A stretch of 64,000 bases of DNA from a virus. Within the stretch, counting starts at the first letter, position 1. Each line of letters starts with the position of its first letter. The stretch lies in the IMG/VR virus record IMGVR_UViG_3300042910_000038; one strand, written 5' to 3'. The notes below the pieces were generated by a model, which was given only the letters and a program-made list of their open reading frames with translations, had not been told where the DNA came from and searched no databases. Position numbers and translations under genes: made by a program. Of this stretch, positions 33,409-64,000 are shown piece after piece.

Positions 33409-33445
33409 TAAATCACCCAAAAATACGATTGTTTTTTGAAAATAT

Positions 33446-33919
33446 TTAGGTTTTGCATGTTGCCGTTAGCTCGTTCGGTCCAAACAGCCCTATAACCACG
33501 AACGTTTTCGCCCTTGAAAGCAGTTTTAGAAACGGCTTCTTGTATGGGGTGACCCTTACAGACGGGTAGACCTTCACTTCCTTGAAGGCTTGTTTCAGAA
33601 AGGTTTCAAGGGTTTTTTTGTTCCAACTGTATAGGTGTTCATATGCAAAGTCGCATTTGGCGTTTGGAACCTTGATGATGACGGTTCCACGGCAAACTCT
33701 TTCAAATTCCTTTACAGCGTCTAATGGATGCTTTAAATGTTCAATGACGTGGCTTGCGTGAACTAGGCTGAAACATTTGTCCTTAAAAGGTAGATAGTGG
33801 GCATCGCAGACAACCTCAACGTCCTCGGCACGTAAAACGTCAACATGCACAACCTCCCCACCTTTAAACCTAAAAGGCTTACCGCCGCTGCCAACATCTA
33901 AAATCAAGAAACCACCCAA
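33446..33919 (-). CDS. Class I SAM-dependent methyltransferase
   Basis: LDVGSGG, CDAHYLPF, ASHVIEH. Confidence 0.85.
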   Translation of the reverse strand: MGGFLILDVGSGGKPFRFKGGEVVHVDVLRAEDVEVVCDAHYLPFKDKCFSLVHASHVIEHLKHPLDAVKEFERVCRGTVIIKVPNAKCDFAYEHLYSWNKKTLETFLKQAFKEVKVYPSVRVTPYKKPFLKLLSRAKTFVVIGLFGPNELTATCKT

Positions 33920-33926
33920 ATAAAAA

Positions 33927-34088
33927 CTAGCCCTTCTCTTCCTCCTCTTTAATAACGCCCTGCCTTTTCAGAAGCTCATACGTTTCAATTAACCTTCTCT
34001 CAACAGCCTTAGGAAACATTATACTCCAATACTTCTGCCAGTCCTCAGCAGCCTTCTCTGGAGGCGGATAACGGGACTTTTTACCCAA
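33927..34088 (-). CDS. 53-aa protein whose N-terminus resembles 8495
   Basis: TTG start after motif; MGKKSRYPPPEKA vs MGRRAKYPSPELA. Confidence 0.55.
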   Translation of the reverse strand: MGKKSRYPPPEKAAEDWQKYWSIMFPKAVERRLIETYELLKRQGVIKEEEEKG

Positions 34089-34107
34089 CCTTGCACCCAA
34101 AAAACTA

Positions 34108-34509
34108 CTATGCTCTTTTGCTGTTAATAGGTTTTCTCGCCGGAAATTTTGAACACCAAGGCTTCCAGAGCATAGTCCAAAGCCTCGTCCGATACCTTGG
34201 CTTCCCATCCTCAATATGCACTCTCCTACAAAACGTAACCTGCTCAGGTTTGCCGTGAAGTCGTTCGTCAAGCCAAACTCTTATCTCATCGTCTCCCATA
34301 GCTCTGCGAAACTCGTAAAACTCCTCATCCCTAATATCTGGAAAACCGTAGCCGATAACGTGGTAGCCGTTTGTTGTCTCAAAAACCTCCATAGCCTCGC
34401 AAAACTTTGCCATGTTAAAATAAACTTTCAAAAGCAAAAACTGGTTTTTACTATCAATATCAACGTTAATCCTTCTGCTCATTCCCCTTCCTCCTTGTAT
34501 GCTCGCCAT
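34108..34509 (-). CDS. Hypothetical protein with DxD and GYH motifs
   Basis: VDIDS...ETTNGYHV...GDD. Confidence 0.5.
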   Translation of the reverse strand: MASIQGGRGMSRRINVDIDSKNQFLLLKVYFNMAKFCEAMEVFETTNGYHVIGYGFPDIRDEEFYEFRRAMGDDEIRVWLDERLHGKPEQVTFCRRVHIEDGKPRYRTRLWTMLWKPWCSKFPARKPINSKRA

Positions 34510-35315
34510 TCGTCGAGCGTGCGCTGTCTTCCAACTTGCATGAACCTTGACGGCGAAAGAATCTTTCCTCTTCTGTAGGCTTCTGCTACAAGCCGCCTGT
34601 ACTCTCTGAACCAGCTTTCAACCCCCAAGCCCGGAACGGTGGCAACCCTTCTGCCAGCTTCAAGGTCGTATCTGTTCTTGTTGTCATACTCAACAGCTTT
34701 CCTAGGCTCCTCAATCCGCACGTAATACTGCTTAACGTCCAAAGGAGCCTCAACCTCGCTTTTGTCAATGGGTACAGCCTCAAAGTCGGGAATTCTTCCG
34801 GTTGGTCCTGGAATCTCAACAACAGCCCTTAACCACTCGTAGTGGCGTCTTCCAGCCAGAACGCTTGCAATAAACAATAGCTCTCTAAGCTCGGCTTCAA
34901 GTTCTGGCTGGGGGTCTTTAAACATCATCTCCTTCGGGTCCCATTTAGCCCACTGATACGGGTTGCGAGTGTAAACTGTGATGCGGAACTCAGCGTAAAA
35001 GTAGTATGGCGGCTTCGGAACCCGCTCGCGGAACATGTAGGCTATCCCAATCCGCCAGTATGGAGCCACAACCTTTTTTGCTAATGTAGCCCTTTCACTC
35101 CTCTCATCTCTAATGTTAGCCCAAATCTCCCTCATAATTGCTCTAACTCTCTCCAAATCCTCTGGGCGCCTGTACCAACGCCAACGGCTGGCATAGCGTC
35201 CCCACTCAACGTAAAGCCTCTCCCTAGCGCGAACCTTGTCCTCAACTCTGGCAATTTCCAGCCGCCACTCCCTTTCAGGAACCACAAGCTTAGGCTCAGT
35301 TGCCAAAACATGCAC
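34479..35315 (-). CDS. Arg/Trp-rich hypothetical protein
   Basis: 278-aa ORF in operon. Confidence 0.55.
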   Translation of the reverse strand: MHVLATEPKLVVPEREWRLEIARVEDKVRARERLYVEWGRYASRWRWYRRPEDLERVRAIMREIWANIRDERSERATLAKKVVAPYWRIGIAYMFRERVPKPPYYFYAEFRITVYTRNPYQWAKWDPKEMMFKDPQPELEAELRELLFIASVLAGRRHYEWLRAVVEIPGPTGRIPDFEAVPIDKSEVEAPLDVKQYYVRIEEPRKAVEYDNKNRYDLEAGRRVATVPGLGVESWFREYRRLVAEAYRRGKILSPSRFMQVGRQRTLDEWRAYKEEGE

Positions 35316-35319
35316 CCAA

Positions 35320-35592
35320 CTAAGCAGCTAGAAGGGTTAGTAGCTCCCTGAACTTTTTAACGTATTCCTTCCCCTTCTCAGTCGTTACAAATTTCCCATT
35401 CTCAACCTCAAGCAGGTTAAGGCTAGTCGCTATGTCAGTCAACTCTTTAAGAATTCCATAAGTGAAAGCGTTTGGGCGAGACCAGTAAATCTCAGCCAAA
35501 CTCCTAGGCTTCCTACAAAATCTAAGAATGTAGAAAAGCAGAGAATAGCGCGAAAGCTTCTTAGTCCTAAGCAGTCTTCTCTCCCGTTCCAT
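35320..35592 (-). CDS. Winged-helix transcription regulator
   Basis: LLEVENGKFVTTEKGKEYV (archaeal wHTH C-terminal signature). Confidence 0.75.
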   Translation of the reverse strand: MERERRLLRTKKLSRYSLLFYILRFCRKPRSLAEIYWSRPNAFTYGILKELTDIATSLNLLEVENGKFVTTEKGKEYVKKFRELLTLLAA

Positions 35593-35630
35593 AATAGAAA
35601 ATGATTCTATAAAACTTTTTAAACCTTATG

Positions 35631-36584: not shown

Positions 36585-36776
36585 CTACTTCTTAAGGGAA
36601 TAGCGCTCTAGGGTTCCGCGTATTGCCCACTCGATTATCTTGTTTCCTACTTCTGTTCCAGCTTCAACTTCTTTTGCAAGCTCTTCGGCAGTATAGGCTT
36701 TGTTGCCTAGAACGGTCATGTAGCCTTTTCTGCGGATTGCGTCTGCAACAACTTTTCTAAGCTCCTCTAAGCTCAA
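36585..36776 (-). CDS. Small protease-partner protein, copy 3
   Basis: GNKAYTAEELAKEVEAGTEVG. Confidence 0.65.
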   Translation of the reverse strand: MSLEELRKVVADAIRRKGYMTVLGNKAYTAEELAKEVEAGTEVGNKIIEWAIRGTLERYSLKK

Positions 36777-36813
36777 ATAGTTTCACCCAAAAAAGATGAT
36801 GCTGATGGAAATA

Positions 36814-43261: not shown

Positions 43262-43355
43262 CAAAAAGGGTGAGCCGGGCTTATCTCATCGGGAGAAGGG
43301 AGAAAGGAGAGAAAGGAATGGAAAAATCCATTTCCAGCGCCCAGCCCACCCAAAA
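43262..43355 (-). ncRNA. Candidate structured small RNA
   Basis: 13-bp closing stem GGGUGGGCUGGGC/GCCCGGCUCACCC (two G-U pairs only on - strand), inner hairpin, CU-rich tract, U-run after; TATA-like CCTTTTAAAC upstream. Confidence 0.55.
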
Positions 43356-43389
43356 ATTTCGAGGATTTTATTGTTTAAAAGGTTTACGT

Positions 43390-45042
43390 TTATGAAGTAA
43401 CGCGGTATTTATATGCTTCATAAATTCTAAGCGCCATAAGGGTGGTTATTTGACTTTCCGTCCATCCCGCTGCTGTTTCGTTTCCAATTGCGCCTGGCTG
43501 GTGTGGTATTCCAGACTCTCCTCCTCCCGCTCCAGATGGTCTGCCTGGGTATATTACGCCATCTCTGTAATGCCACTGGTACATAAAGGCTCCAGCAAGG
43601 TCTGGCAAGTTCACCTCATATGCGCTTCCATCTATGATTATTCTTCCCAACCCCGGGTTAGTGAATGGATAACCCCACTGAGTCTTAACGATTAGGTCGG
43701 CAAGTGCATCTGCAATAGCTTTCGCTTCGTCATAGCCGAAACCGTAACCCAAAATTGCAAACGGTATAAGCTTTTCACCTATATGCCAGTAGTAATCGTA
43801 TTTCTTGTCGATTATATTCTTGGCATCTTCAATAAGAGGTGGTTGTAGGGGCTCAGTTACATCCCAACAAGCATCTCTCCAACCATTTAAAAGAAAATCT
43901 TCTGCGGAGTTCGGCGGGACATCCCTTCCTGCATATGGACAAGGCAAAGTGCATGGCAAAACTACCCCTTTACACTGACTTGGACACCATCCGAAAAAGT
44001 ATCCACTAATCCCAGCCACAGGCATAACTTCTTTATATTTTGGGTCGCCGTACTTGTTCAGCAAATGCGTTGCCCTAATGTAAATCGACGTTAACGGCGG
44101 GATTCTCATAGCTTCTTCTGGGTAAGGACCACACTGACATCCAACAATGCACCCCCTACAATAACACCTTGAACTCATATATGGGTAAACTTGTGGGTTG
44201 GCTGGCAAATTATACCACACGTCACAAGAATGGTTCCTCCCCCAATCGCACAACCAATTATCCGGCAGACTGTCACTGGTTCCGAGCAAGCATGTTGCCC
44301 TGTAATCTCCAACCGTATATCCATAATCGTCTAGAAACGTAAACATTTTCCTAGCTCTGTCACGAAGGGCTGGGCGACAGTACCAATAGTAATAAGCTGC
44401 TAAGGCAGTTTCTTCGCCCCAATAGTATCCCCTCTTGAAGCATCCATACGGGCTTGTTGTTCTCTCTACAACGCTTCCAACGTGGTTTTTAGCGTCAACT
44501 ATGTCTGGAGTTTCTTTAGTAACATCTTCAGAGGTAACATATAAATCGCCATTTATATTGGGGTCAAGCCAATCCAAGATTTTGACCTTTAAAAGCATTC
44601 TATCAGAATAGCTGGGATGAGTTTCATACGATACTTGAATTTTAGCCACAGGATTCCACTCATATTCAGACCCTTCCGCTGAATATTTTTCTAGATAAAA
44701 GCCTAACTCGTAAACTGCGTCAAACTTCCATCTGCCATCAATCACCGCCCTAGAACTTGACAAAACCCGCGAAGTTTCAAACCATCTTAACCCCAATAAT
44801 GTAAGAGGGTCACACTCCTTAAACCCTGATGGTATAGCATAGCCTGGACCAAGGCAAACACTTCTCTTATCTACAAGGGCATTACCCGGTAATGGCGATG
44901 TTACTTTTAGACTGAAATGTAAACCTGCACAAGAATCTATAATGCCATAAGTTTTACCCCCGTATCGCACCTCATGGTAGAGCTTGTCCAGATAATGGTC
45001 GCCCCAATATATTGCCCGTCTAATCTCACTCTGAGTCGCCAT
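43390..45042 (-). CDS. Paralogue family B copy 3
   Basis: MATQSEIRRAIYWGDHYLDKL; LGYGFG; ALRIYEAYKYR. Confidence 0.65.
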   Translation of the reverse strand: MATQSEIRRAIYWGDHYLDKLYHEVRYGGKTYGIIDSCAGLHFSLKVTSPLPGNALVDKRSVCLGPGYAIPSGFKECDPLTLLGLRWFETSRVLSSSRAVIDGRWKFDAVYELGFYLEKYSAEGSEYEWNPVAKIQVSYETHPSYSDRMLLKVKILDWLDPNINGDLYVTSEDVTKETPDIVDAKNHVGSVVERTTSPYGCFKRGYYWGEETALAAYYYWYCRPALRDRARKMFTFLDDYGYTVGDYRATCLLGTSDSLPDNWLCDWGRNHSCDVWYNLPANPQVYPYMSSRCYCRGCIVGCQCGPYPEEAMRIPPLTSIYIRATHLLNKYGDPKYKEVMPVAGISGYFFGWCPSQCKGVVLPCTLPCPYAGRDVPPNSAEDFLLNGWRDACWDVTEPLQPPLIEDAKNIIDKKYDYYWHIGEKLIPFAILGYGFGYDEAKAIADALADLIVKTQWGYPFTNPGLGRIIIDGSAYEVNLPDLAGAFMYQWHYRDGVIYPGRPSGAGGGESGIPHQPGAIGNETAAGWTESQITTLMALRIYEAYKYRVTS

Positions 45043-45084
45043 ACTCCATCACCCAAAAATAAGACACTCAACAATAATATAGCT

Positions 45085-45468: not shown

Positions 45469-45490
45469 ATACATCACCCAAAAATCCCAT

Positions 45491-46092: not shown

Positions 46093-46123
46093 AAAGTTTT
46101 ATTGTTGTTGGAGGATATTAGGC

Positions 46124-51497: not shown

Positions 51498-51513
51498 AAA
51501 TATTTTGATGGTT

Positions 51514-52185: not shown

Positions 52186-52200
52186 ACTTTACACCCAAAA

Positions 52201-52292
52201 TAAGCGATTGATTGTGTGACTGGCTGATGCGCGTATGGCTAGACCAAAGCCTGTCTGGAAGACCGAGCTGTGTTTGGGGGAAAGTTGGTTTG
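52201..52292 (-). ncRNA. CNNN-periodic unit D (candidate guide RNA)
   Basis: caaa ccaa cttt cccc caaa caca gct cggt cttc caga cagg cttt ggtc tagc cata cgcg cat cagc cagt caca caat caat cgct. Confidence 0.6.
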
Positions 52293-52303
52293 CACCCAAA
52301 AAA

Positions 52304-52402
52304 GGATTGGATGAAGGGATGAAGGGACCCTTGCATGAAGGCTGTACGCGTGCATGCTAGGACGGATGACTGATTACATAACGATTAAGACTTGCCCCGT
52401 TG
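52304..52402 (-). ncRNA. CNNN-periodic unit C (candidate guide RNA)
   Basis: taat cagt catc cgtc ctag catg cacg cgta cagc ctt catg caag ggtc cctt catc cctt catc caat. Confidence 0.6.
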
Positions 52403-53074
52403 TTAATCCACTTTTTCGAATTTTACTATTTTTACCTTTCCCCTTTTGGTTGGTCCAAACTTGGCTGTTTCCAGTGCATGTAGTATTTGAGCCATTTCGT
52501 CATCTTCCAATGGTGCCACCCCGTTTGATGTTATCGTGCATGGTATGTTTATGTCTTTTATCACCTCGTACGCTATGTCAGCTCTGACTTTTTCTCCTGA
52601 CCTCTGCTTCGAATGTCTGGTCTCGCTTACAATATCGATGTAAAGCTTGTCTTTAACGTCTTCCAGCGGAACTTCAAACCATTCCGGCTCAATAGTGACC
52701 AGTGCAACTTTTGGCAGTTTATACCCTAAGCTTTTAATCTCTTTGCACACCTGCCTTAGGGTAGTGTCTAAAATTCCGAAATGTCCGCCAAAGGGTATCA
52801 ACAGCTTTTTCCCGTCTTTGCTCCGTGGGAAAGTTCTGAACGGTATTTCTTTCTCTTCAGACTTAACGACGCTTGTCGTCCTTGAACGTTTCTTAGACTT
52901 CTCCTTTGTCACTTCTTTGTTAGTAACTGCAATAATTTGTTTCTCTGGAAGTTGGTACCACATTGTATACTGCGGGTCCTGCCTTGCATAGAGCCTTTCA
53001 ATCTTAAACTCAACGTTCCAAGCAACGTCCTTAGACCTCCAAGCATTAATAAGAGGCGTCAAATCCGTAGCCAT
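52403..53074 (-). CDS. Solitary Cas7/Csf2-like RAMP-fold protein (putative)
   Basis: Strand WNVEFKIERLYAR, FPRSKDGKKLLIPFGGHFGILDTTL, AYEVIKDINIPCTI, helix, Gly-loop FGPTKRG then KVKIVKFE; start reassigned to ATG 53074. Confidence 0.55.
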   Translation of the reverse strand: MATDLTPLINAWRSKDVAWNVEFKIERLYARQDPQYTMWYQLPEKQIIAVTNKEVTKEKSKKRSRTTSVVKSEEKEIPFRTFPRSKDGKKLLIPFGGHFGILDTTLRQVCKEIKSLGYKLPKVALVTIEPEWFEVPLEDVKDKLYIDIVSETRHSKQRSGEKVRADIAYEVIKDINIPCTITSNGVAPLEDDEMAQILHALETAKFGPTKRGKVKIVKFEKVD

Positions 53075-53119
53075 TTTCCCACTTTCCTCCTTTTCCACTT
53101 TAGGCTTACACCCAAAAAA

Positions 53120-53204
53120 GTTGACAGACTGCCTGGAAGGGTGTACGTCTGGTTAAGTGAATGGCTGATTGGTCTCTTCAGGGAGTGCACGCCTGAAAGT
53201 CTGG
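53120..53204 (-). ncRNA. CNNN-periodic unit B (candidate guide RNA)
   Basis: 21 tetramers in unbroken register; 18 start with C, 14 have A second. Confidence 0.65.
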
Positions 53205-53213
53205 CACCCAAAA

Positions 53214-53286
53214 GTTGGGCGACTACATGACTGTCTGTTTGAATGTGGATTGAACGCTGAGTGTCAACTACACGCTGGACTGAGTG
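53214..53286 (-). ncRNA. CNNN-periodic unit A (candidate guide RNA)
   Basis: cact cagt ccag cgtg tagt tga cact cag cgtt caat cca catt caaa caga cagt catg tagt cgcc caac. Confidence 0.6.
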
Positions 53287-53303
53287 CACCCAAAAAGGCT
53301 TGT

Positions 53304-53594
53304 TTACATGAATTCGTGTAGGTATGCGTTTTTTGCTTGTAGCTTGTAGTCCGCCAAGACTTTTGGTATAGGTTCGCCTTTTGCAACTCTGTTTATAGCT
53401 TCTAAAAGCATTTCTCGACCTCTAAACCCTTCACTTTTAGGGTAAATCCGGTCTTCATTCTCAAACATAAACTGCAACAGCCTCAAAACATCTTCAACAG
53501 TAAAAACCTCTTCACCATCCGTTTCTAACAACAGAATCCAATCTCTCTCATGCTTTTTACCCTTAACATAACGCCATCTGACCACAAACAACAC
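53304..53594 (-). CDS. Hypothetical protein
   Basis: Follows motif variant; directly upstream of unit A. Confidence 0.55.
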   Translation of the reverse strand: MLFVVRWRYVKGKKHERDWILLLETDGEEVFTVEDVLRLLQFMFENEDRIYPKSEGFRGREMLLEAINRVAKGEPIPKVLADYKLQAKNAYLHEFM

Positions 53595-53601
53595 CCAACA
53601 T

Positions 53602-53815
53602 TTAACCCTCTTTCAGCTCTATTTTGAAGTTTCCCGTAAGCCGATAGTTTTCCAGCTCCTGCCAACAAACATATCTGTAGGCTGGGCATCCATATTCAGA
53701 GCAGTTTTCTGGAAAGTCTCTGGTGCAGTTTCCCGCAGTTTGGACAATGAATCTCCCAGTCAAAGTTTATGCACTTCCTCTCAAATACACACCAGTAAAT
53801 ATCCTTCTTCTTCAA
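53602..53815 (-). pseudogene. Frameshifted Cys-rich small gene
   Basis: MKKKDIYWCVF..CPNC in one frame, ..CSEYGCPAYRYVCW.. in another; AAACTGC repeated at the switch. Confidence 0.4.
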
Positions 53816-53839
53816 ATTCGACACCCAAAAAAAGCATTT

Positions 53840-54055
53840 TTATTCTTCTAGAATCTCGATTTCCTCAATCTCTTCAATTGGAATCTCAATTGTCCCTCTT
53901 TGTCGCTCTGGATAGACCTCCATCCATGGACTAATTATGACTTTGGGCATCCGCACGTAGTTTCTAATGATAACATGCTTGTCATCTCGCTCTACAAGTT
54001 CACCTTCTATCACTCCATCCCAAAATCCCCTCTTTTTCTTAACTCTAACCTTCAT
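53840..54055 (-). CDS. Small beta protein (Sm/SH3-like pattern)
   Basis: VIEGELVERDDKHVIIRN...IEIPIEEIEEIEI. Confidence 0.5.
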   Translation of the reverse strand: MKVRVKKKRGFWDGVIEGELVERDDKHVIIRNYVRMPKVIISPWMEVYPERQRGTIEIPIEEIEEIEILEE

Positions 54056-54074
54056 AAGTTATCACCCAAAAATT

Positions 54075-54359
54075 CTATTTTGGCTTTAGGTCTATTACGA
54101 TTTTGTCTCCCCTTTCAAGATACTCCTTTAAGTTCGCTAGAAAACACTTTGAACACATGGCAAGACCTCCTCGCATAACATAGCCTCCTACAACTTTCTC
54201 ATCTTTAAAGCGCATCAGGATATAATCGAAAGGCTGGTGGACAACTAATGCTGGAAAATCCATCAAAGGCTTAGAACACAAGTCGCAAACAGGATTAGCC
54301 ACAGCAAACCTTTCACGATTCCAAAGCTCGATTTTAACCTCAGCCAAACCAACACCCAA
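54075..54359 (-). CDS. Zinc-binding hypothetical protein
   Basis: CDLC...CSKC. Confidence 0.5.
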   Translation of the reverse strand: MGVGLAEVKIELWNRERFAVANPVCDLCSKPLMDFPALVVHQPFDYILMRFKDEKVVGGYVMRGGLAMCSKCFLANLKEYLERGDKIVIDLKPK

Positions 54360-54368
54360 AAATGCTTT

Positions 54369-54500
54369 TTAAATTAGCTCGCAGTCCGTTGAACCACATT
54401 CCGTGCATTTAACAGTTACAAACCTTTTAGGCGAAGGCTTCAAGTAGAACTCTTTTCCACAACTTCTACACCTGTACTGGGCTTTTTGACGATTCTTCAT
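54369..54500 (-). CDS. Zinc-ribbon protein (43 aa)
   Basis: Manual ORF YRCRSCGKEF...KCTECGS. Confidence 0.55.
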   Translation of the reverse strand: MKNRQKAQYRCRSCGKEFYLKPSPKRFVTVKCTECGSTDCELI

Positions 54501-54521
54501 CCTATGAACTCACCCAAAATG

Positions 54522-55220
54522 TTAGCGGGTGGGTCGGGCGTACGTTTTAGGTTGCAACATCTTAAACGATATGCTTCTTGAAGCCCATATTAGGTAGAAA
54601 ACCTCGCTTATCACAGCTTTCACATCTCCAATATTTCTTGTGAAGACATTTCTTTCAATGTGGATGTGGACTGCCGGCAAACCATACCACTGATGGAAGT
54701 GAAGCTGGTCAACTCTCACATGGTGTATTCCAAACCAGTCCCGTATGAAGTCATAAGACTTTTCCGAAGTTGCCAACGCTACTGGAATGTCGCCTTCAAC
54801 CCTGAACATTCCAGAATCCGGAAAATATTCAAAGGAAACTGAGCCAACAGTCGCGGTTAAAGCGTAGTCGCTAAACCTTTCAAAAGGAAGAATCCACGGG
54901 TAGATTCCGCACTCTGCAAGGCGAAGCTCAACCCTTCTTCTAAACTCTCTATCCTGATAATCCAGCGTCATTATGGTCGCGCCGTAAGCTTTTGCACGGA
55001 CAGAAAAACCGCGTGCAGTCAAATCCTCAATAAGCTCTCTAATAAGCTTCTTAACCTCTTCTGGAAAACCCTCGGGAATTTCGCGTCTAACAACAGCTTC
55101 TTCCCCGTTTGGGTTTCCAACCTTAACCATCAGGGCTTGTGGACCACACTTGGCACAGAAATACCTGCCCAAGGGCTTTTCAACTGTTCGCCCGCACTTA
55201 ACACACTTGTAAGTCGGCGT
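54522..55220 (-). CDS. Zinc-leader protein 7 (ACG at the start position)
   Basis: Frame extends upstream of track start: ACG-PTYKCVKCGRTVEKPLGRYFCAKCGP. Confidence 0.6.
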   Translation of the reverse strand, partial: TPTYKCVKCGRTVEKPLGRYFCAKCGPQALMVKVGNPNGEEAVVRREIPEGFPEEVKKLIRELIEDLTARGFSVRAKAYGATIMTLDYQDREFRRRVELRLAECGIYPWILPFERFSDYALTATVGSVSFEYFPDSGMFRVEGDIPVALATSEKSYDFIRDWFGIHHVRVDQLHFHQWYGLPAVHIHIERNVFTRNIGDVKAVISEVFYLIWASRSISFKMLQPKTYARPTR

Positions 55221-55254
55221 CCCAACCCACCCAAAAAACTATCAGCTTTAAACG

Positions 55255-55596
55255 TTAAAAGCTTTTGCCCTCCAGCTTTTTCTCCACGCTTTCAAGCCTC
55301 TTCTCCAGCGATTCAACCCTCAAAGAAAGCGTTGCAATCTCCTGCCAAACGTCCTCCGGAACCCTGAACTCAACGGGCTTGCTCGGCTTAACCCTAGCCT
55401 TCCAACCTTCAAGCCACTCGTCGAAAGCCTTCAAAATCTTCCGCCTACAGTCCTCGCACAGATTCTGGTCAACAACCTCCTCAAACTTCTCCCTAGCAAC
55501 CCAAGGCTCCAAACCATAGACCTCAGCGTAGTTAGCCCCCAAAACACTCTCCAAACGCCAAGAAACAAGCTCCCACAACTTACCCATAAGAAACAC
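55255..55596 (-). CDS. Hypothetical protein with CxxC and coiled tail
   Basis: CEDC; LSLRVESLEKRLESVEKKL. Confidence 0.5.
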   Translation of the reverse strand: MFLMGKLWELVSWRLESVLGANYAEVYGLEPWVAREKFEEVVDQNLCEDCRRKILKAFDEWLEGWKARVKPSKPVEFRVPEDVWQEIATLSLRVESLEKRLESVEKKLEGKSF

Positions 55597-55607
55597 CCAA
55601 AAATTGT

Positions 55608-56723
55608 TTAGTCGGTGGTAATTATAGGCGCCAACCAGAACGTTATTTGGCTTCCGTATAGCTGTGTTAGTATTTCAGTTTTTATAGGCATGTCTGAAGC
55701 TAAATGCAACGTTGCTATGTCTCCTATTTTCGGCAGTATCCTTACAAGCTCTTCAGTTTTGAAGCTTGCCTTAACATCCCTGTAACCCTCTAAAGCCAAA
55801 AGTATATCCGAGCCTTTCTTAACGTTCACCTCAGCCTTAACCGTTTCACCCTTACCAGTCAAAGTTAAACCCTCATCCGTAGCCTCAATGGTAACCGTGT
55901 CAGCCTTCTGCTTAATCCTCTCAAGCTTAGCCACAAACTTGTCCAAGTCAACCTTAGCTAAAACTTTAAAGTCAACCTTTGGAACAGGCACATCCTCATA
56001 ATGCTCGTCCAGAAGGCTCAAAGTAAACCTGTCCCTAGAACTTCCAACATCAACGCGCACAATGAACTCGCTTTCCTTGATACTAGGCTCACTTGTCCAA
56101 ACACTTTCCTTACGCTTCCAGACGCGAACTTTGCCCCTCCACTTGCACGTTGAACCGTCAGGCAAACGCCAACCACATTTATACCGCGTCCCTTTCGGAC
56201 CCCTCTGATTTGGCATGAGCATGTTATAAACCGTTGGGTTTCCACATTTTGGACACGTTTCAGGCTTCCGCCTCTCAACCTCAATAACGCTTCTCCGACA
56301 ATTGTAAACCGTCTTAACCTCAAACTCAGCCTTAGAATACTTATCGCATTCAGCCAAAGCATACAATAGCTCGCTTGCCAAAACATGGACGGTTACAGGC
56401 AAATCAACAGTCTTCATTCTGGGCGAGGCTGGCGCAACCTCGTAAGATTCCATATCAGTCTTCGAAACGCTTACGTCAGCCAACTTGTAGCGGTCGCTAT
56501 CCATAAACCTCAAAGACAAACCGTCATAGCTAAAGGTTAAAGGCAAAGCATCCTCACTGTAGCCACCTTTAAGAAAGCTCTGATGCAAAGCCTTCAACAA
56601 ACTCCTAAAAGTCAACAACTGCTCGCCGCCAAAACTGAACCTGACAACAACGCCTCTTTTGAAAACTCTTGGCTGTTTAGACTTTTCCTTCTGAACAACA
56701 ACTTGCTCCGTCATACAAAACAC
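55608..56723 (-). CDS. pcn: PCNA (sliding clamp) homologue with zinc-finger insertion
   Basis: LTFSYDGLSLRFMDSDRYKL, YEDVPVPKVDF, ADTVTIEA, SDMPIK, FWLAP; insert CPKC...C..C. Confidence 0.78.
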   Translation of the reverse strand: MFCMTEQVVVQKEKSKQPRVFKRGVVVRFSFGGEQLLTFRSLLKALHQSFLKGGYSEDALPLTFSYDGLSLRFMDSDRYKLADVSVSKTDMESYEVAPASPRMKTVDLPVTVHVLASELLYALAECDKYSKAEFEVKTVYNCRRSVIEVERRKPETCPKCGNPTVYNMLMPNQRGPKGTRYKCGWRLPDGSTCKWRGKVRVWKRKESVWTSEPSIKESEFIVRVDVGSSRDRFTLSLLDEHYEDVPVPKVDFKVLAKVDLDKFVAKLERIKQKADTVTIEATDEGLTLTGKGETVKAEVNVKKGSDILLALEGYRDVKASFKTEELVRILPKIGDIATLHLASDMPIKTEILTQLYGSQITFWLAPIITTD

Positions 56724-56743
56724 CCAAAAAAATATATGCTATT

Positions 56744-57121
56744 TTGGTGAATTTCTTTTTTGTGAGATGTATGGCAACTGAGTATGAGAGATTGATGACT
56801 GAAGAGGAAAAGAGGCGTGCTGAACGTGAACGGAGATGGGAAAGAATTTCCCATGAAATGGAAAGAGAAGCTAGGGTGAGACTAGATGCTATTGGTAGGG
56901 CAATGTCAATATCAGCGGTTATCGATGAAGTCAAACTGGCGAAGCATAAGTTCAAAGGATACATAGACACTATCCGGAGAGACTTACCTGAATATGTTGA
57001 CGATGCAATAGCATCGGTAACTTTCTACTTAAGCGACATCTGGAGCAAAGGCAGAGAAAGAATAACTGAAATATACGATAAACTTGTAGGTGAAGAGTCG
57101 GTATACACAAAGCCTACGTAA
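56744..57121 (+). CDS. Isolated + strand helical protein
   Basis: Opposite orientation, AT-rich TATA-like upstream. Confidence 0.5.
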   Translation: MVNFFFVRCMATEYERLMTEEEKRRAERERRWERISHEMEREARVRLDAIGRAMSISAVIDEVKLAKHKFKGYIDTIRRDLPEYVDDAIASVTFYLSDIWSKGRERITEIYDKLVGEESVYTKPT

Positions 57122-57147
57122 ATCCAAAAGCAACACCCAAAAACTTG

Positions 57148-57390
57148 CTATTTTTCCTCTTCTTTATGTTTTACTGCAAGAGTGAATTCTCTGCAAACTT
57201 TAGCTAGGCTTTCCGCTTCGAAAGGTCTGTCCTTGTCGTCCCAGTTTCCAAGCAGAGGCTTAACAGCACGGTAAACAGCACAGACGTTTAAATGACTGCA
57301 ATACGTGCACTTCTTATCCACAAACCTACCTATGTCTCCTTCAAACTCCGCCAACCTACCCTTAACAGTAACAGTAGTCAAACGAAACAC
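57148..57390 (-). CDS. Cys-rich hypothetical protein
   Basis: CTYCSHLNVC...C. Confidence 0.5.
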   Translation of the reverse strand: MFRLTTVTVKGRLAEFEGDIGRFVDKKCTYCSHLNVCAVYRAVKPLLGNWDDKDRPFEAESLAKVCREFTLAVKHKEEEK

Positions 57391-57401
57391 CCAAAAATTT
57401 C

Positions 57402-57698
57402 TCAGCCAAAAACCAAGCCAGCAGTTTTCTGTATATACCTTCTGGCTAACGGATACTTCATCATCAGTTTATGATACTCCCTTAATGCTGGAACAACTCT
57501 CTCTTTCATGTCTCTCTCAGCATCGCCAGTCCTCGGCGGAAGCGTAGCAAGAAAACTCATCCACTCATCCATAAACCTAAAATACTCTTCCTTTTCGGGA
57601 GAAAGCCTCTGCAAACGAGTTCCACAAACCTTACAAGTGTAACTTCCCTCTGACAAGTCGACATATCTATTACACTTTGGACATTTATAAATCGGCAT
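57402..57698 (-). CDS. Zinc-leader protein 8
   Basis: MPIYKCPKCNRYVDLSEGSYTCKVCG. Confidence 0.7.
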   Translation of the reverse strand: MPIYKCPKCNRYVDLSEGSYTCKVCGTRLQRLSPEKEEYFRFMDEWMSFLATLPPRTGDAERDMKERVVPALREYHKLMMKYPLARRYIQKTAGLVFG

Positions 57699-57739
57699 TT
57701 AAATACACCCAAAAGCATGTTTCTCTTTTTATCAATAGT

Positions 57740-58195
57740 TTAGGTGTAAGGAGATACTGAACCATAATACTCTAGACAATTAGGCGGTATGTTCTTGAAA
57801 ACCAGAACTTTCTCTGGGCTTCTGATGATTCCCGCTTTTGCTTGACGTTGTAACCTATCCCAAATTCTTCTTCCGTAATACTTTATTATGCGTTCTGCAT
57901 CATCGTAGTATTGGTCATAGTCAACAATTCTTCCAGTCTCATCGAGCGCAAGCGTTATACTTTTGAAATCTGGGATTCCGTTGATAACGTCTTTTACGTC
58001 TAAATATGATAACCCTCTATCCGAAAGCCATCTTTCTAAATCATCGCCACAAAGCCTAGCTCCTCTCTTTAAAGGAAACACTTCATGTGACCCAACAGGT
58101 TCCATAACATAAGTCGGACCACAAACAGCACAGTAGTATGTCCCTTCTGGTTTTTCCACACGCCTGCCGCATTTTGGACACACATAAACCGGCAA
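57740..58195 (-). CDS. Zinc-leader protein 9
   Basis: TTG-PVYVCPKCGRRVEKPEGTYYCAVCGP. Confidence 0.7.
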   Translation of the reverse strand: MPVYVCPKCGRRVEKPEGTYYCAVCGPTYVMEPVGSHEVFPLKRGARLCGDDLERWLSDRGLSYLDVKDVINGIPDFKSITLALDETGRIVDYDQYYDDAERIIKYYGRRIWDRLQRQAKAGIIRSPEKVLVFKNIPPNCLEYYGSVSPYT

Positions 58196-58238
58196 TCTAA
58201 ACACCCAAAAAGATATTCGTTGACCTTTCCATATAAAG

Positions 58239-59119
58239 CTATTTGCCTATTGAAATTGCTAAGACCTTGTGCAGTTCAGCGTTCAAGTTCCGTTTAGTGA
58301 ACATGCTGGCTGTTTCGCTGTGCCAAATTGCACGAGTCACATCATCATAGACCTCCCATAGAGTTGCTGGCTTCAAAATTTCTATTTTGTTTTCAACAGC
58401 TTTAATGTATTCTGGCAGATACTTCTTTGGCAATCTTTCAGCAAGGCGTTCTGCAATTTCTTGGTTCAGCTTCAGCGCAGTCAAAGCCCTATAATTGTCA
58501 AGTATAGCCTTGCCCCTGTCAACAATCTCCAGAATCGTTGTCTTCAGCTTTCCAACGTCAAGCTCCAAATGCTTCGTATGCTTCCAATACGCCTTAATCT
58601 CCAAATCACCAGTCTTCACAACAACTCCATTGGAGCATATCAATCGAAAAGTAAACAGGTCTATGCCAAACCCCATAGAACCATTTCCGAGGAGACGTGC
58701 CTCCACACAGTCTCCTCTTCGGAGTTTCTCACTTGCACGCCTAACTGCACTTTGTCGCCTGTGTCTATCTTGTAGCGTTCTGGGAAAACCATTGTCCAGT
58801 AGGCTCTGAAGCTTTTCTCGTCGAAATCGTACACAGTTCTTCCGCCATGAACAAGCTCATGTCCGCTCCGCTTCATCACTTGTAAGCCAAACATCTCGCT
58901 CAGTTGCTCAACAGCTTGGTTAACCATAGCGTTCGGCAAAAGCCGGTATCCGCGGCTAACAATCGATATTACTCTAGGCTGTTCCTTGATTTCCTTGATT
59001 ATGGCTTTGAACGGAATCCGCTGACCCTTAAACTTCAACGGAGCTTCATAAAGCCCGTAGTCTGCGAACTTGTCGTCTATCCGCTCAAAGTCAAGCCAAA
59101 CACCAGACAGCTTTTCCAT
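58239..59119 (-). CDS. DUF932-like protein, spliced (exons 58717-59119 and 58239-58684; 282 aa)
   Basis: VSRGYRLLPN; after splicing VRNSEDGSMGFGIDLFTFRLICSNG. Confidence 0.75.
58685..58716 (-). other. 32-nt archaeal bulge-helix-bulge intron in a protein-coding gene
   Basis: CCGA-AG^A-GGAGAC-13 nt-GUCUCC-UCGG-AA^A; excision restores frame and NSxDG motif. Confidence 0.8.
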
Positions 59120-59143
59120 TTCAAACCACCCAAAAATGAAGGG

Positions 59144-59341
59144 TTAAGGAATCTCCTTGATGTATGCCATTTCCGAAAGCATTTCGGCAATATCGCTGAT
59201 TACGAGCAGAAGCTTGCGCACATCATTCACGCTTTCGATTTCCTTGTCTTTCAAGACTCTAACAGCTATATCAATCGAGTCGATAATCTCAGTTGAACTC
59301 ATCTCATCCCAAACCTTCGCTTCGATAAACACGTTTATCAT
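59144..59341 (-). CDS. Helical hypothetical protein
   Basis: Motif-delimited. Confidence 0.5.
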   Translation of the reverse strand: MINVFIEAKVWDEMSSTEIIDSIDIAVRVLKDKEIESVNDVRKLLLVISDIAEMLSEMAYIKEIP

Positions 59342-59387
59342 CTCCCATTATTCAAATGATATTTCAACACCCAAAAATGTTGTTTCA

Positions 59388-59615
59388 TTAACTTTCTACT
59401 CCTTCAAAGGTTATGACGATTTCCTCAGGCTTTGAATTCAAATGTTTAGGACACCGTATCCAAAACGGGTCTGGAACTCTCTTACAAATTATGTCTAAGA
59501 TGTCGGGTTCCAGCAGGTAAATTTTACATCCACATTCCAGCGTTGTTATTGTAGCTTTCGGCGTTCTTTCCTGCTTTAAAACTCTTATCGGCTTTTCAAC
59601 CATACAAACACCCAA
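59388..59615 (-). CDS. Small Cys-containing protein
   Basis: LECGC...CPKH. Confidence 0.5.
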   Translation of the reverse strand: MGVCMVEKPIRVLKQERTPKATITTLECGCKIYLLEPDILDIICKRVPDPFWIRCPKHLNSKPEEIVITFEGVES

Positions 59616-60042
59616 AAATGTTTTTTGCTTTAAGAGTGTGAAACTTGACTAAAACGTTGTGTTCAACTTTTTTCTTTTCTTGAATTTTTTCTTCTGTTAG
59701 TTTGCACAGTCTTTTCAGCATTGCCCAGAATCCTTTCTCTGAAGGTTTTTCAAGTCCGCATTTTACGTTTTCCAAGTGTTTTGCTAGGCATTCCCAGTAA
59801 GAGTTGGTGTTTACGTCTAGGAATGCTGTCCGAATTTTTAGGAAGCCATTATTTCTGAGTTCATACAACCATTTGCTGAATTCAAACCAGTCTTCGTCTG
59901 AAACTTCTGGGGCTAGTTGGCGGTATCTGAAAAACAGTCCAACAGCGTCCACGTAGCCAAGAGCAGATGGCATTCCAGTTCTGGCTTCCTTTTTAACCTC
60001 GATTTCGTAGGCTTTTAACAGCAGATTGAAGTCTTTCCTCAA
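59596..60042 (-). CDS. Hypothetical protein
   Basis: Array gene. Confidence 0.5.
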   Translation of the reverse strand: MRKDFNLLLKAYEIEVKKEARTGMPSALGYVDAVGLFFRYRQLAPEVSDEDWFEFSKWLYELRNNGFLKIRTAFLDVNTNSYWECLAKHLENVKCGLEKPSEKGFWAMLKRLCKLTEEKIQEKKKVEHNVLVKFHTLKAKNIFGCLYG

Positions 60043-60217
60043 GTTTATTCATACCTCTTGACTTCAACAACTTTAACTTCATAGTCGTAAGGGTCAAAGT
60101 CGCTGTCCTGCCAAAGAAAGTCCCAAGCCTCCTTTTCCGCTTCCTCTTTGTTTTCCGCTTCAACGTAGATGGTGAAGTTTTGCTTGAACGTAACCTTGTA
60201 GCGTTTTTTAACCATCT

Positions 60218-60484
60218 TTATCCCTCAACCGTTATGGAGTAGTCTGGTGAAACCTTATAGCATAGTTTCCCGTTCTCCTCAACCCATTCGGCTAGGTTCC
60301 GCCATTCCTCTTCCGCTGACGGCGAAAGTTCTTTTAAGGCATTTTTGAAGGCTTCTTCGTCCACTTCATAGATTCTGATTTCGCCATCTCCATTTTCTCT
60401 AACAATGTTTAGTGCAACCTTTAGGACTCTCCGTCCTTCTTCGGCTATGATTTGCCATGTATTTTCGACAACCATTTTAAACAC
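60218..60484 (-). CDS. Hypothetical protein
   Basis: Motif-delimited. Confidence 0.5.
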   Translation of the reverse strand: MFKMVVENTWQIIAEEGRRVLKVALNIVRENGDGEIRIYEVDEEAFKNALKELSPSAEEEWRNLAEWVEENGKLCYKVSPDYSITVEG

Positions 60485-60496
60485 CCAAAAACGTGT

Positions 60497-60943
60497 TTAT
60501 TTGATGTTTTGAAGCAGGTTGTCTAGCTTTTCCTTTGTCTCTTTTAGGAAACTGTCAACTTGTTCATTGAAGTCTTCTGGGCTTTCAGCAAGCTCTCCCC
60601 ATCTGCAGTCGTAAACGTTTACGACTACTTCGTACACGTATTTGCCTATGGTTACATCCTTGACAACCCTTACCTCGTTATTCTTGTAGTCTGAATCCAC
60701 GCGCTCAAAGAACCATAAGCCTTTCACGGCATCCTCACCGAACCGCTTCTTAAACTGCTCTTTAAGAAAGCCAGCGAAGTGCCAAAGCTCATTGACAATG
60801 TTTTCAAAGTCATACTCCCTGTTCAAGTAGACGCCCATATAGGCTTCAGCATCCTCTTCATCCTCGACAACCTTCTCCCTAATCAAATACTCCCTAAACT
60901 CATCCCACAAGCTCATACAAACACCCAAAAACGTTCTTATCAC
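60497..60943 (-). CDS. Acidic hypothetical protein (true start probably MSLWDEF)
   Basis: Motif at 60922. Confidence 0.5.
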   Translation of the reverse strand: MIRTFLGVCMSLWDEFREYLIREKVVEDEEDAEAYMGVYLNREYDFENIVNELWHFAGFLKEQFKKRFGEDAVKGLWFFERVDSDYKNNEVRVVKDVTIGKYVYEVVVNVYDCRWGELAESPEDFNEQVDSFLKETKEKLDNLLQNIK

Positions 60944-61226
60944 TTTCTGTTTCGTTGGCTTTTTGGGAATTCGATTTTTCTAGGAATTCGATGGCTTCTT
61001 CATCTATGATGAACAAGGTTTTTCCACATTCTGGACATTTATACTCGGCGAACAAGGTTTCTCCGCATTTTGGACATTTATAGAGGAATTCATACATGCC
61101 TTCTTCTTCCATTGTGCGAATGTATTCATACTGTGGTATATAGCCGTGGAGGCTTAACATGTATTCATCAATCGTATATTCCAACAGATAGTCTATTTCT
61201 TTTCCGCATTTTGGACATTTCGGCAT
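60900..61226 (-). CDS. Zinc-ribbon protein with duplicated CPxCG
   Basis: CPKCG three-fold pattern. Confidence 0.55.
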   Translation of the reverse strand: MPKCPKCGKEIDYLLEYTIDEYMLSLHGYIPQYEYIRTMEEEGMYEFLYKCPKCGETLFAEYKCPECGKTLFIIDEEAIEFLEKSNSQKANETESDKNVFGCLYELVG

Positions 61227-61244
61227 TTAAACACCCAAAAATGT

Positions 61245-61454
61245 TTAGTCTTCGTATTCTCTTCCATGCTTATCTATTTCAACAGTTCTTTCCGTATGGT
61301 ATGTTTCAGTCCACTCGCATCCGCATTCCTCGCAGATGTAGTAGTGGGTTTCCCATTCTTCACGCCAGTCGTATGCGTTTCCATCGTCCAGATATTCTGG
61401 ATAGCCGTCTGCCTCTCTCACGTTGTGGCTGTGGCATTCTGGACATCTAGGCAT
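61245..61454 (-). CDS. Zinc-ribbon protein
   Basis: CPECH...CEECG. Confidence 0.55.
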   Translation of the reverse strand: MPRCPECHSHNVREADGYPEYLDDGNAYDWREEWETHYYICEECGCEWTETYHTERTVEIDKHGREYED

Positions 61455-61699
61455 TATCCCTTCACCTCATCCAAAAAGCTGTCTATCACATCCCAGTTTA
61501 TGCCAACAGTTGAATCCCGCCTTCTATGGATTTCATCGATAATCTCTTCAGCCTTCTTTCTTGAAATTTTGATTCCACGCTCTTCAGCTCTCTCCAAAAC
61601 GTCTTCAACACACCATATGTCAACGGCAACATGCTCGTCTGGGCTACAATTTCTCAAAAGCCAATCAACAACCTCCTTCACAGTCGGCAATTTAACCAC
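61454..61699 (-). CDS. Hypothetical protein
   Basis: WCVEDV...DSTVGINWDVI. Confidence 0.5.
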   Translation of the reverse strand: MVKLPTVKEVVDWLLRNCSPDEHVAVDIWCVEDVLERAEERGIKISRKKAEEIIDEIHRRRDSTVGINWDVIDSFLDEVKG

Positions 61700-61711
61700 C
61701 CAAAAAGTTGG

Positions 61712-62107
61712 CTAACGAATTTTTATTCTATGCTTTCTTTTCAGGGCTTCTTCCAACCTCTCCCGTATGGTTTCCAGCTCCCTAATCACGAAATATTCAA
61801 GTTTAAAGTCAATTTCTCTAATGAAGTTCTCCCTGCTACTCGTAAGCCACTCAACCTTCTCCCTGAAAGCTCCTAAAACCTGCCAATAAACGTCGTTCAC
61901 AGAAAATATCACGTCATAGTCTAAATCGAAAAACCAGTCCAAAGCATCGCTTTCAAGCTCATACGTAGTCAACTCTGGAACTTCCTCCCTCGTAGCCCTC
62001 ATATACTCCTGCACTTCTGGATGGCTAAGCACTTTTTCAAGCAACTTATCATAATATTCATCAGACACAAAAACCACCCAAAAATAGACGAAAGCGCTTT
62101 TCCTCAA
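61712..62107 (-). CDS. Acidic helical hypothetical protein
   Basis: Motif at 62075. Confidence 0.5.
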   Translation of the reverse strand: MRKSAFVYFWVVFVSDEYYDKLLEKVLSHPEVQEYMRATREEVPELTTYELESDALDWFFDLDYDVIFSVNDVYWQVLGAFREKVEWLTSSRENFIREIDFKLEYFVIRELETIRERLEEALKRKHRIKIR

Positions 62108-62122
62108 AATTTTTTATAACGG

Positions 62123-62314
62123 TTACTTGATTTTCCGTATTCTAGGTTTTCTTGACTCTGTTACTTCGTAGCCTCTTCTTTCAAGCTCTTGGGCTATTGC
62201 TTCCAACTCTATCAAATCTCTCGAACCATAACACTCCAAGACATACACGCTTTCCCAAAGGCTGATGTAACGATTTTTAAGTTCCTCATCAGACATTTCG
62301 CTTAAACCTTTCAT
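62123..62314 (-). CDS. Hypothetical protein
   Basis: Motif-delimited. Confidence 0.5.
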   Translation of the reverse strand: MKGLSEMSDEELKNRYISLWESVYVLECYGSRDLIELEAIAQELERRGYEVTESRKPRIRKIK

Positions 62315-62527
62315 GATTTACACCCAAAAATTTCTTCGAGGAGTTCTCCCAGAACAGCCTCTTGGAACTCGTCGGTCAACTCGTGATATTGGCTTTCCCA
62401 CTCTTCCATAAGCTTCACAAAGCTTGGTGAGCAGGCTGGATGTTGAGCAAGTTTCTCCCTGAGCTTCCTAAGTAAACTGCAAAGTTCTCCTCTGAAATCA
62501 TTAAAACAACTGACAACAGGCTCCCAT
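62311..62527 (-). pseudogene. Small gene with 1-nt frameshift just after ATG (or sequencing error)
   Basis: ATGGGAGCC; removing one G gives MEPVVSCFNDFRGELC..., 71 aa. Confidence 0.4.
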
Positions 62528-62914
62528 CTACAACACCCAAAAACGCATCACTTTTCAACATAGACTATCCTATGTCCCCTTTTACACCTTTTACGAAGCC
62601 CTCTCCCAGTCCTAAGCGTCCAAGTATCACAGCTTAAAAGGTCGGACGGCATCAAACAAACAAAAGGCTCTCTAGAAACAACCCTAACAACATGCTCCAT
62701 TAACAACAACACCCAAAAATTTTCTTTTACTAAATTTTGTAGAATGCGGCAATCTCGTTAAGCAGAATCAACGCTTCCTCAAGCTTCTTCTGTTCATTTG
62801 GAAGGTAGTTCTTCCATCTAAGCTCTTTCTTCACTTCTTCAATAAGCTTCATCGCACGAACCAGTTTTTGAGACATATACTCCACGTTGAACACCCAAAA
62901 CAGAAAATTGTTGG

Positions 62915-63175
62915 TTAATGGTTTTTGAGAACTTCGTCTTGATGGAAAACTGATGGAATATCTTCCCTGTCTAACCCCTTGAACCTATCATTTATCTCGA
63001 CAACCATCCGTCTAGCCATATCAATATTTTCAGCATACAAAACTGCATCTGGCATTCTCCAGTACTTCTTTTCATCCTCCGTTATTGGAATCGGTTTTTC
63101 AATAAAACGTCCCTCATAGTCACTCCACACCACGCCATACATCTTCAAACGCCGTTCGCCAGACAACACCACCAC
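62915..63175 (-). CDS. Hypothetical protein
   Basis: Array gene. Confidence 0.5.
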   Translation of the reverse strand: MVVLSGERRLKMYGVVWSDYEGRFIEKPIPITEDEKKYWRMPDAVLYAENIDMARRMVVEINDRFKGLDREDIPSVFHQDEVLKNH

Positions 63176-63203
63176 CCAACAAACAGAAAAAAGATTGGGA
63201 ATT

Positions 63204-63551
63204 TTAAGCGTTTTTCACTTCAAGTCCCTTGAAGTAGCACAGAGGGTATGGCAGTTTGCCGTTTCTACTTGGAAACTTAAGCAAAAGCCTTTCACCATAA
63301 ACAACAGCATACCAGTATCCGTTATGCCATTCACATCTAATATCAATGCCCTTGAAAATTATTGTTGGAACACCATTCCGCCAGCCCATAAAAGAAATAA
63401 TAGTCCCCTTAGGAATGGTTATGCTCTTCGTCTCGTTGTGCAACGTAGTGTCTTTAGTCAAAATTCCCACAGCCATTTTGAAGCACCCAAAAGGGTGACA
63501 TCTCACCAGCATACCACCAGCCTCACCAAAAACAACATTCGGTATTACCAA
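63204..63551 (-). CDS. Hypothetical protein
   Basis: Array gene. Confidence 0.4.
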   Translation of the reverse strand: MVIPNVVFGEAGGMLVRCHPFGCFKMAVGILTKDTTLHNETKSITIPKGTIISFMGWRNGVPTIIFKGIDIRCEWHNGYWYAVVYGERLLLKFPSRNGKLPYPLCYFKGLEVKNA

Positions 63552-63658
63552 CCAGCATCACCAGAGAGTAAAAAGACTATGTTGATAAGTCAAAAATCTA
63601 CAAACCAAACCTCTACTATAAATGCTTTCAAAACACCCAAACAGAGAAAAAGGGAATT

Positions 63659-63856
63659 TTATATGATGTCTTCTTCACGGCTTCTTGCGAGGATTTCTGC
63701 CAAATTGCTTAAGTTGTAGCATATCAAATACCATGCACACTGTTCCCTTATGCAGTATTGGACGTTTGCATCGCCGTGATGGATTCCGAAAGCAATCAGT
63801 CTAAATGGACAAACCTTTCTTTTTTCAATATACGCCTCCCTCTTCTCTTCCGACAT
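63659..63856 (-). CDS. Cys-containing hypothetical protein
   Basis: KVCPF...CIREQCAWY; start reassigned after motif. Confidence 0.5.
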   Translation of the reverse strand: MSEEKREAYIEKRKVCPFRLIAFGIHHGDANVQYCIREQCAWYLICYNLSNLAEILARSREEDII

Positions 63857-64000
63857 TAAAACACCCAAAAAGTAGAGAAAAGGGGGGTTAGTAGAATCGT
63901 AGTCCTCTTTTCTCAAGTTTTTTCTTGTGCTTCTCAAGTTTCTCGTCTTCTTCTGCTTGGATTCTCTGGGTTATTCTAACGTATGCGTCTAAATCCTTCT

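Follow-up and report, generated by a model that had tools for sequence, protein, structure and literature searches.

Composite signals repeated between the small variable genes of a virus are known from T4-type phages, where they were described as promoter-early stem-loop (PeSL) cassettes (PMC2839356, PMC4122927), and a similar motif made of a TATA element plus an inverted repeat was reported for the haloarchaeal myovirus HGTV-1 (PMC3950731). Furthermore, start-associated sequences (SAS) precede genes of the cluster K mycobacteriophages (PMC3203893), and archaeal U-tract terminators, which operate with aCPSF1/FttA, carry four or more U residues right after the gene (PMC8716108). Here, a ten-letter sequence, TTTTTGGGTG (T5GGGTG), was analyzed, which is repeated on the minus strand of a virus DNA of 64,000 nt (IMG/VR record IMGVR_UViG_3300042910_000038; the whole of this stretch is called the window, and positions refer to it if not stated otherwise). 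The motif is probably a composite expression signal between genes which, as a by-product, provides a microhomology for the loss, gain and swap of single genes.

Like the PeSL cassettes, the motif is a composite signal whose copies all have the same orientation and lie between non-structural genes that are small and variable, and in both systems the breakpoints of indels and replacements between close relatives are located in the repeat. It differs in having 10 nt and no stem-loop, whereas PeSL cassettes are longer and combine an early promoter with a stem-loop terminator. In the window, the components are an archaeal T-tract as predicted terminator, a putative promoter at a subset of the copies and a ribosome site, and the host is an archaeon that has not been cultured and is probably thermophilic. 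The SAS share with the motif an asymmetric sequence, a position 3-7 nt before starts, a single orientation, confinement to the non-structural genome half, a Shine-Dalgarno core combined with conserved positions that are unable to pair with 16S rRNA, and a few copies which are not linked to genes (PMC3203893). The 13-bp SAS (GGGATAGGAGCCC) is unrelated to TTTTTGGGTG, the inverted-repeat partner found in the mycobacteriophages (extended SAS, ESAS) is missing here, and the SAS are not linked to recombination breakpoints or terminators in the available parts of two reports (PMC3203893, PMC12699233). The principle of PeSL and SAS is not new in itself but now includes a new lineage among archaea, where it takes the smallest form known so far: terminator, start base and ribosome site would be fused without a hairpin. 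A literature search for the ten-letter word returned unrelated primers only.

The virion genes of the window lie on the plus strand at 1-33 kb (left arm), and the right arm at 33-64 kb is encoded on the minus strand. In the original prediction, about 40 or more copies of the motif had been proposed, essentially all on the minus strand. Exact counting agreed with this: 38 exact copies of TTTTTGGGTG were found between 31193 and 63871, 37 of them at 33414-63871 and all on the minus strand, where 0.27 (maximum 2) are expected from shuffled sequences. The minus/plus counts are 47/0 for TTTTGGGTG, 56/0 for the core TTGGGTG and 60/3 for TGGGTG. The GGGTG part is without any single-mismatch variant, and all variation is confined to the length of the T-run, which is T5 in 29 of the 56 cores, T6 or longer in nine, T4 in nine and shorter in the remaining nine. 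TTTGGGTG is the most frequent 8-mer of the right arm, with 48 copies versus 11 for the next unrelated 8-mer.

The copies are unevenly distributed. The claim that the motif punctuates the entire right arm holds for the dense zone at 45-64 kb, with 46 cores in 19 kb, but not for 35-45 kb, where it is nearly absent (three cores for 19 open reading frames, ORFs). The motif-dense accessory arm (45050-63871, minus strand) contains 33 exact copies plus variants with a shorter T-run, about one per 410 bp, and each of them heads a small gene or unit. A few copies are located at 33.4-36.8 kb. The motif-poor segment corresponds to the RadA/ParB module, the genes of which overlap or have GGAGG-type sites. 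In agreement with the original prediction, in which no such pattern was seen in the left arm, the motif never occurs in front of the plus-strand genes of this arm; these have degenerate GGAGGTGA-type sites, five of which read GGGTGA, and never a T-run.

Among the roles proposed for the motif, ribosome binding is the one best supported by the sequence. The position shortly before starts was confirmed, with a spacer of 5-7 nt between GGGTG and ATG, GTG or TTG in 37 of the 42 gene-linked copies. The GGUG of a ribosome site pairs with the near-universal CACC of the anti-Shine-Dalgarno sequence, and the GGUG of the motif very probably acts in this way. Since left-arm genes also use such sites, including the five with GGGTGA, GGGTG can be regarded as a valid ribosome site in this genome. 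Typical copies are located 5 nt ahead of the ATG of gene 33064-33408 (33414-33423, with an element resembling a transcription factor B recognition element (BRE) and TATA box that precedes the first G by about 30 nt), ahead of ORF 33927-34088 (34094-34103) and ahead of gene 36585-36776 (36784-36793, with a TATA-like element upstream and kept in the relative L139). All three are exact and on the minus strand.

For a subset of the copies, a promoter is suggested. The core promoter was defined here by a purine as start base and a TATA box whose centre lies about 26-27 nt ahead of it. In the 105 non-redundant sites of the window and its relatives, the frequency of TATA-like hexamers is highest 31-28 nt ahead of the motif's first G: 17 sites have a match in these four positions, which is about 5.5 times the background, versus about 0.8 matches per position elsewhere. 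By eye, about 25 of 56 sites in the window show an A-rich BRE followed by a TATA element at this distance. A distance of 31-28 nt is the usual one between the TATA box and the transcription start in archaea, which suggests that the RNA of this subset would begin at the G, giving a leader of 10-12 nt that opens with the ribosome site. Where a TATA element is present, we consider the chances of a start at the first G somewhat better than even.

The T-run in front of GGGTG may be a partial, weak U-tract terminator, for which we see about even chances. In 28 of 52 copies, 0-15 nt separate the stop codon of the upstream gene from the T-run. Both arms are poor in T5 on the sense strand, with 35 runs versus 93 antisense runs in the left arm and, outside of the motif, 27 versus 78 in the right arm; the motif itself accounts for 37 of the 64 sense T5 runs of the right arm. 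In Methanococcus maripaludis, single U4-tract terminators reach a median termination of about 43%, and two tracts terminate more strongly (PMC8716108). Two T-tracts are also present in a distal sub-class of the motif, which occurs at 62.9-64 kb and within the first 3.5 kb of the relative L128. This sub-class is about 22 nt long, directly follows a TAA stop codon and consists of TTCCC, T5, CT, a few bases and TTGGGTG (62892-63871; L128 1-3520). Its copies on the minus strand include one with the T5 run shifted upstream (62892-62900, TTTTCTGTTTTGGGTG), one of the form TTCCC..T6-CTGTTTG-TTGGGTG (63173-63179) and one of the form TTCCC-T5-CTCTG-TTTGGGTG (63634-63641), which has no ORF directly downstream. 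This layout indicates that the T-tract and GGGTG are separable modules. The motif differs from the known U-tract terminators in that the putative terminator tract abuts the ribosome site and the likely start base of the next gene. Neither a hairpin nor dyad symmetry, RNA structure or special accessibility was predicted at the motif.

The second property of the motif became apparent from the comparison with relatives. Ten contigs (L126-L135) were obtained by a metagenome scan with a 371-aa protein of the window. They are 66-94% identical in this protein and 67-100% identical in shared DNA blocks, and carry the motif densely on the coding strand with zero copies on the other one. A further contig, L139, spans 46-36 kb of the window and has the five window copies of the motif in place. 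In the left-arm relatives L002-L005 and L136-L138, which cover structural genes only, no motif was found.

The ten contigs are gene-by-gene cassette mosaics of the window. As proposed in the original prediction, the motif coincides with the boundaries of shuffled cassettes: 47 of 89 ends of homology blocks lie at most 3 nt from a copy, versus 4% for random positions, and in seven of the eight junctions which were read base by base the crossover lies inside the 10-mer. In these seven, the upstream flank of one window copy continues up to the T-run, and the downstream flank of another copy follows from the base after GGGTG. Among them are the losses of the genes 61712-62068, 60900-61226 and 53840-54055, of the stretch 54347-53598 and of a 1.1-kb block (53287-52200). 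Of the 37 motif sites in relatives that have a flank matching the window, 26 agree with it on a single side or with a different window site on each side, and the motif also heads cassettes that the window lacks. If breakage were even over a gap of 25 nt, seven of seven crossovers inside the 10-mer would be expected with a probability of about 0.002, as a rough estimate. With good confidence, the motif can be taken as a cassette boundary and as a preferred crossover point in this comparison of sequences. In this way, the variable genes of what is probably a hot-spring archaeal tailed virus are organized as plug-in units behind one 10-nt signal, and close relatives differ mainly by whole units swapped at it.

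At least nine copies of the motif serve no ORF, and in this respect the original prediction, which had noted copies around non-coding units and before a hairpin at 43.3 kb, was right. An exact copy with a strong BRE/TATA element upstream (43347-43356, minus strand) heads a small structured RNA of about 84 nt instead of an ORF (43262-43351, minus strand; 2738-2822 in L139; z = -4.2). Here, GGGTG does not serve as a ribosome site but forms the 5′ side of the terminal stem (13 bp). The first base of this stem is the first G behind T5, and a further T5 run follows immediately after its end. The start of the stem at this G agrees with the proposed transcription start. The RNA is conserved in L139 from the promoter to CACCC, with changes that preserve the stem, and Rfam gave zero matches in the window, including this RNA. 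It also has a long, CU-rich single-stranded internal loop with runs of CUCC and CUCCC, which could pair with ribosome sites of the GGAG type, though not with GGGUG.

Two opposite-strand cassettes sit between direct copies of the motif and leave the upstream copy without a gene. The first comprises three ORFs (46124-47041, plus strand) between the copies 47048-47057, which is the orphan, and 46086-46095. The second is a single ORF (56744-57121, plus strand) between 57134-57143, an orphan which is kept in relatives, and 56721-56730. Similar opposite-strand units were found in relatives (L129, 5712-5894; L128, 5454-5736).

Five copies bracket four non-coding stretches around the gene 52403-53098. 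On the minus strand of this region, copies are located ahead of non-coding unit A (53287-53296, also the left breakpoint of a 1.1-kb cassette absent from L127), ahead of non-coding unit B (53205-53213, a T4 variant), 10 nt ahead of the GTG of gene 52403-53098 (53109-53118) and ahead of a non-coding unit 3′ of this gene (52293-52302). A further T4 variant precedes an AAA-ATPase gene (52192-52200; gene 51514-52185) and forms the right breakpoint of the cassette absent from L127, L128 and L133. No structure was predicted in the four non-coding units, the z-scores of which are near zero, and they were rejected as structured RNAs. The units are missing from relatives that retain the motif throughout. 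The idea that the motif delimits guide RNAs is thus unsupported, and a guide-RNA or CRISPR-like array was rejected, since the units of the arm are genes of 40-550 aa, the non-coding ones are unstructured and Rfam is empty. Nothing supports the proposal that a long transcript is cut into units at the motif, and no nuclease is linked to it. The RAMP-like gene 52403-53098 was considered as a motif-processing enzyme and dismissed, because its cassette is absent from L127, L128 and L133, which retain the motif.

From these observations, the following mechanism is proposed. Located 0-15 nt behind the stop codon of the preceding gene, the T5 run would act as a weak archaeal U-tract terminator and at the same time provide a T-rich stretch just upstream of the start. 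In the clear subset with a BRE/TATA element about 30 nt upstream, the RNA would start at the first G with a leader of 10-12 nt, and the GGUG in this leader would serve as ribosome-binding site for the next gene. As identical 10-bp copies in the same orientation recur at intervals of about 400 bp, whole genes may be removed or inserted cleanly when copies slip or anneal with each other, resulting in the mosaic of the relatives. We read the 10-bp exact direct repeat as the best available substrate for such events and not as a dedicated recombination site. Indels in the motif-poor segment (38733/37418 and 39301/39170 versus L139) join at arbitrary microhomologies of 5-7 nt such as TTAGT and GTGGAT; microhomology-mediated indels therefore seem to be the general mode in this virus group. 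The conservation of the motif beyond what one signal requires is best explained by the overlap of several signals and by the joining of motif to motif, which remakes an exact copy with each move.

Several points weigh against this explanation. Roughly half or more of the copies have no TATA element by eye, and the hexamer scan finds one in only 17 of 105; if T5 termination were efficient, little expression would be expected for the genes behind the TATA-less copies. In about five cases, the copy overlaps the last part of the preceding ORF, and termination there would shorten the mRNA. The junction at 58239 breaks upstream of the motif, just after the stop codon, and the motif-poor segment is likewise a mosaic when compared with L139. 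Breakpoints at the motif are also partly expected, since it makes up about 10 of about 25 intergenic bases and probably only gene-precise indels survive selection. The invariance of all five positions of GGGTG and the preference for T over A after it exceed the needs of rRNA pairing alone. Finally, the putative pairing was deduced from the near-universal anti-Shine-Dalgarno sequence.

One alternative is that the motif is only an extended ribosome-binding site with a T-run that is a neutral or translation-enhancing spacer; the match of breakpoints would then result from selection for gene-precise indels and from BLAST blocks that reach into any conserved island. The tight spacing to the start codon of 5-7 nt, the use of GGGTG as a ribosome site in the left arm, the large share of each short spacer taken up by the motif and the mosaic junctions that occur without it all fit this view. 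It does not account for the orphan copies, several of which are kept in relatives, for a T-run that is conserved as strongly as GGGTG though unable to pair with 16S rRNA, for the fixed distance between TATA element and G, or for structural genes that never have the motif. The crossovers argue in the same direction, as seven of the eight junctions are inside the 10-mer and none of the seven in the adjoining spacers. We therefore regard this alternative as unlikely. The original prediction had named it as what would remain if no breakpoints or transcript ends mapped to the motif; as its ribosome-binding part is well supported by the sequence, this clause is partly right.

Another reading is that the invariant 10-mer is recognized by a dedicated factor, so that the accessory arm would form one regulon and the mobility of cassettes would be a side effect. 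This is decidedly unlikely. It could take the form of an arm-specific switch of translation or RNA stability, as an archaeal counterpart of RegB and RegA, or of start selection by a viral TFIIB-type zinc-ribbon protein. In T4, RegB cuts GGAG in early ribosome sites and RegA represses them. In the more specific version, a trans-acting factor of the virus or host, either protein or RNA, would cleave, repress or activate the messages of the accessory arm at the 10-mer, which would provide a temporal switch between the arms. The nearly invariant core without single-mismatch variants, the strict limitation of the motif to one arm with ordinary sites in the other and its presence before non-coding units speak for such a factor; the role of the similar mycobacteriophage SAS is also still open (PMC3203893, PMC12699233). 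We rate it as a long shot, since no RNA-binding protein or nuclease was recognized among the proteins of the arm, the sole RAMP-like candidate (52403-53098) is missing from relatives that retain the motif, and the motif has no accompanying RNA structure.

A dedicated, integron-like system for site-specific capture of cassettes would agree with the crossovers inside the motif, the opposite-strand cassettes flanked by direct copies and the same boundary for many unrelated cassettes, but is very improbable, as no integrase or site-specific recombinase family was found in a Pfam screen of 52 ORFs of the arm and 20 further queries, the site has no dyad symmetry, hairpin or imperfect palindrome, indels elsewhere in the virus group use arbitrary microhomologies of 5-7 nt, and two IMG/VR scans, one for the motif followed by a start codon and the other for pairs of copies spaced 225-255 nt, gave among the matches listed only chance matches or tandem coding repeats.

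With the composite signal as the favoured explanation, the motif provides a simple marker by which accessory genes and the limits of cassettes can be found in related contigs from metagenomes, and a test case for the minimum length of an archaeal unit of terminator, initiator and ribosome-binding site.

The window is interpreted as DNA of an uncultured head-tail virus of archaea or of a virus-like element, because its relatives are metagenome contigs only and a single distant homologue is located in a metagenome-assembled genome (MAG) of Bathyarchaeia. GCA_038840535.1 is a candidate host MAG of Bathyarchaeia, and the host is probably a thermophilic, uncultured archaeon. A megablast of 20 kb of the window against phage records matched nothing, and IMG/VR scans guided by the terminase-position, 550-aa and 371-aa proteins gave zero relatives. 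No tRNA genes were found in the window.

The virion genes of the left arm were identified by size, order and relatives, and none of them matched Pfam. A 485-aa protein (10937-12394, plus strand) occupies the terminase position, directly followed by a 549-aa protein in the portal position (12398-14047, plus strand); an 811-aa protein of this arm carries an intein. The right arm, an accessory arm which is probably expressed early, encodes a RadA/Rad51 homologue (E = 2e-48), a ParB-like protein, an AAA ATPase and about 60 small ORFs. Its 550-aa protein (43390-45042, minus strand) is a paralogue of the 549-aa protein (31% identity, E = 5e-56). Distant homologues of the 550-aa protein occupy a portal-like position in other contigs, so that a virion-type gene is present twice, with one copy per arm.

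Some individual copies of the motif deviate from the usual arrangement. The copy at 59368-59377 (minus strand) is located 31 nt upstream of a gene equipped with a GGGAG site of its own, an arrangement which is also kept in L129. An isolated exact copy (31193-31202, minus strand), with an ORF of 48 aa behind it, lies antisense within a peptidase-like plus-strand gene (30749-31483); chance, a relic or a real antisense gene could account for it. A T3 variant (50394-50401, minus strand) is located inside a 380-aa ORF (49624-50766), 5 nt before an in-frame GTG which would yield a 254-aa protein with a DUF488 domain. This variant could be the sign of an internal start; alternatively, two cassettes may have fused recently.

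The DUF932-like gene (58239-59119, minus strand) consists of two overlapping ORFs in the window and is unsplit in relatives, with 292 aa in L129 (3811-4700) and 282 aa in L128 (6136-6995), which fits an insertion specific to the window. Finally, many small proteins of the right arm share a zinc-ribbon opening, MP.Y.CPKCG, as in 60900-61226, 57740-58195, 57402-57698, 50778-51125, 48627-49070 and, on the plus strand, 46124-46441. The Pfam TFIIB zinc-binding ribbon was matched by five small right-arm proteins and, in a separate screen, by that of 46124-46441. These zinc-ribbon proteins could bind RNA polymerase.

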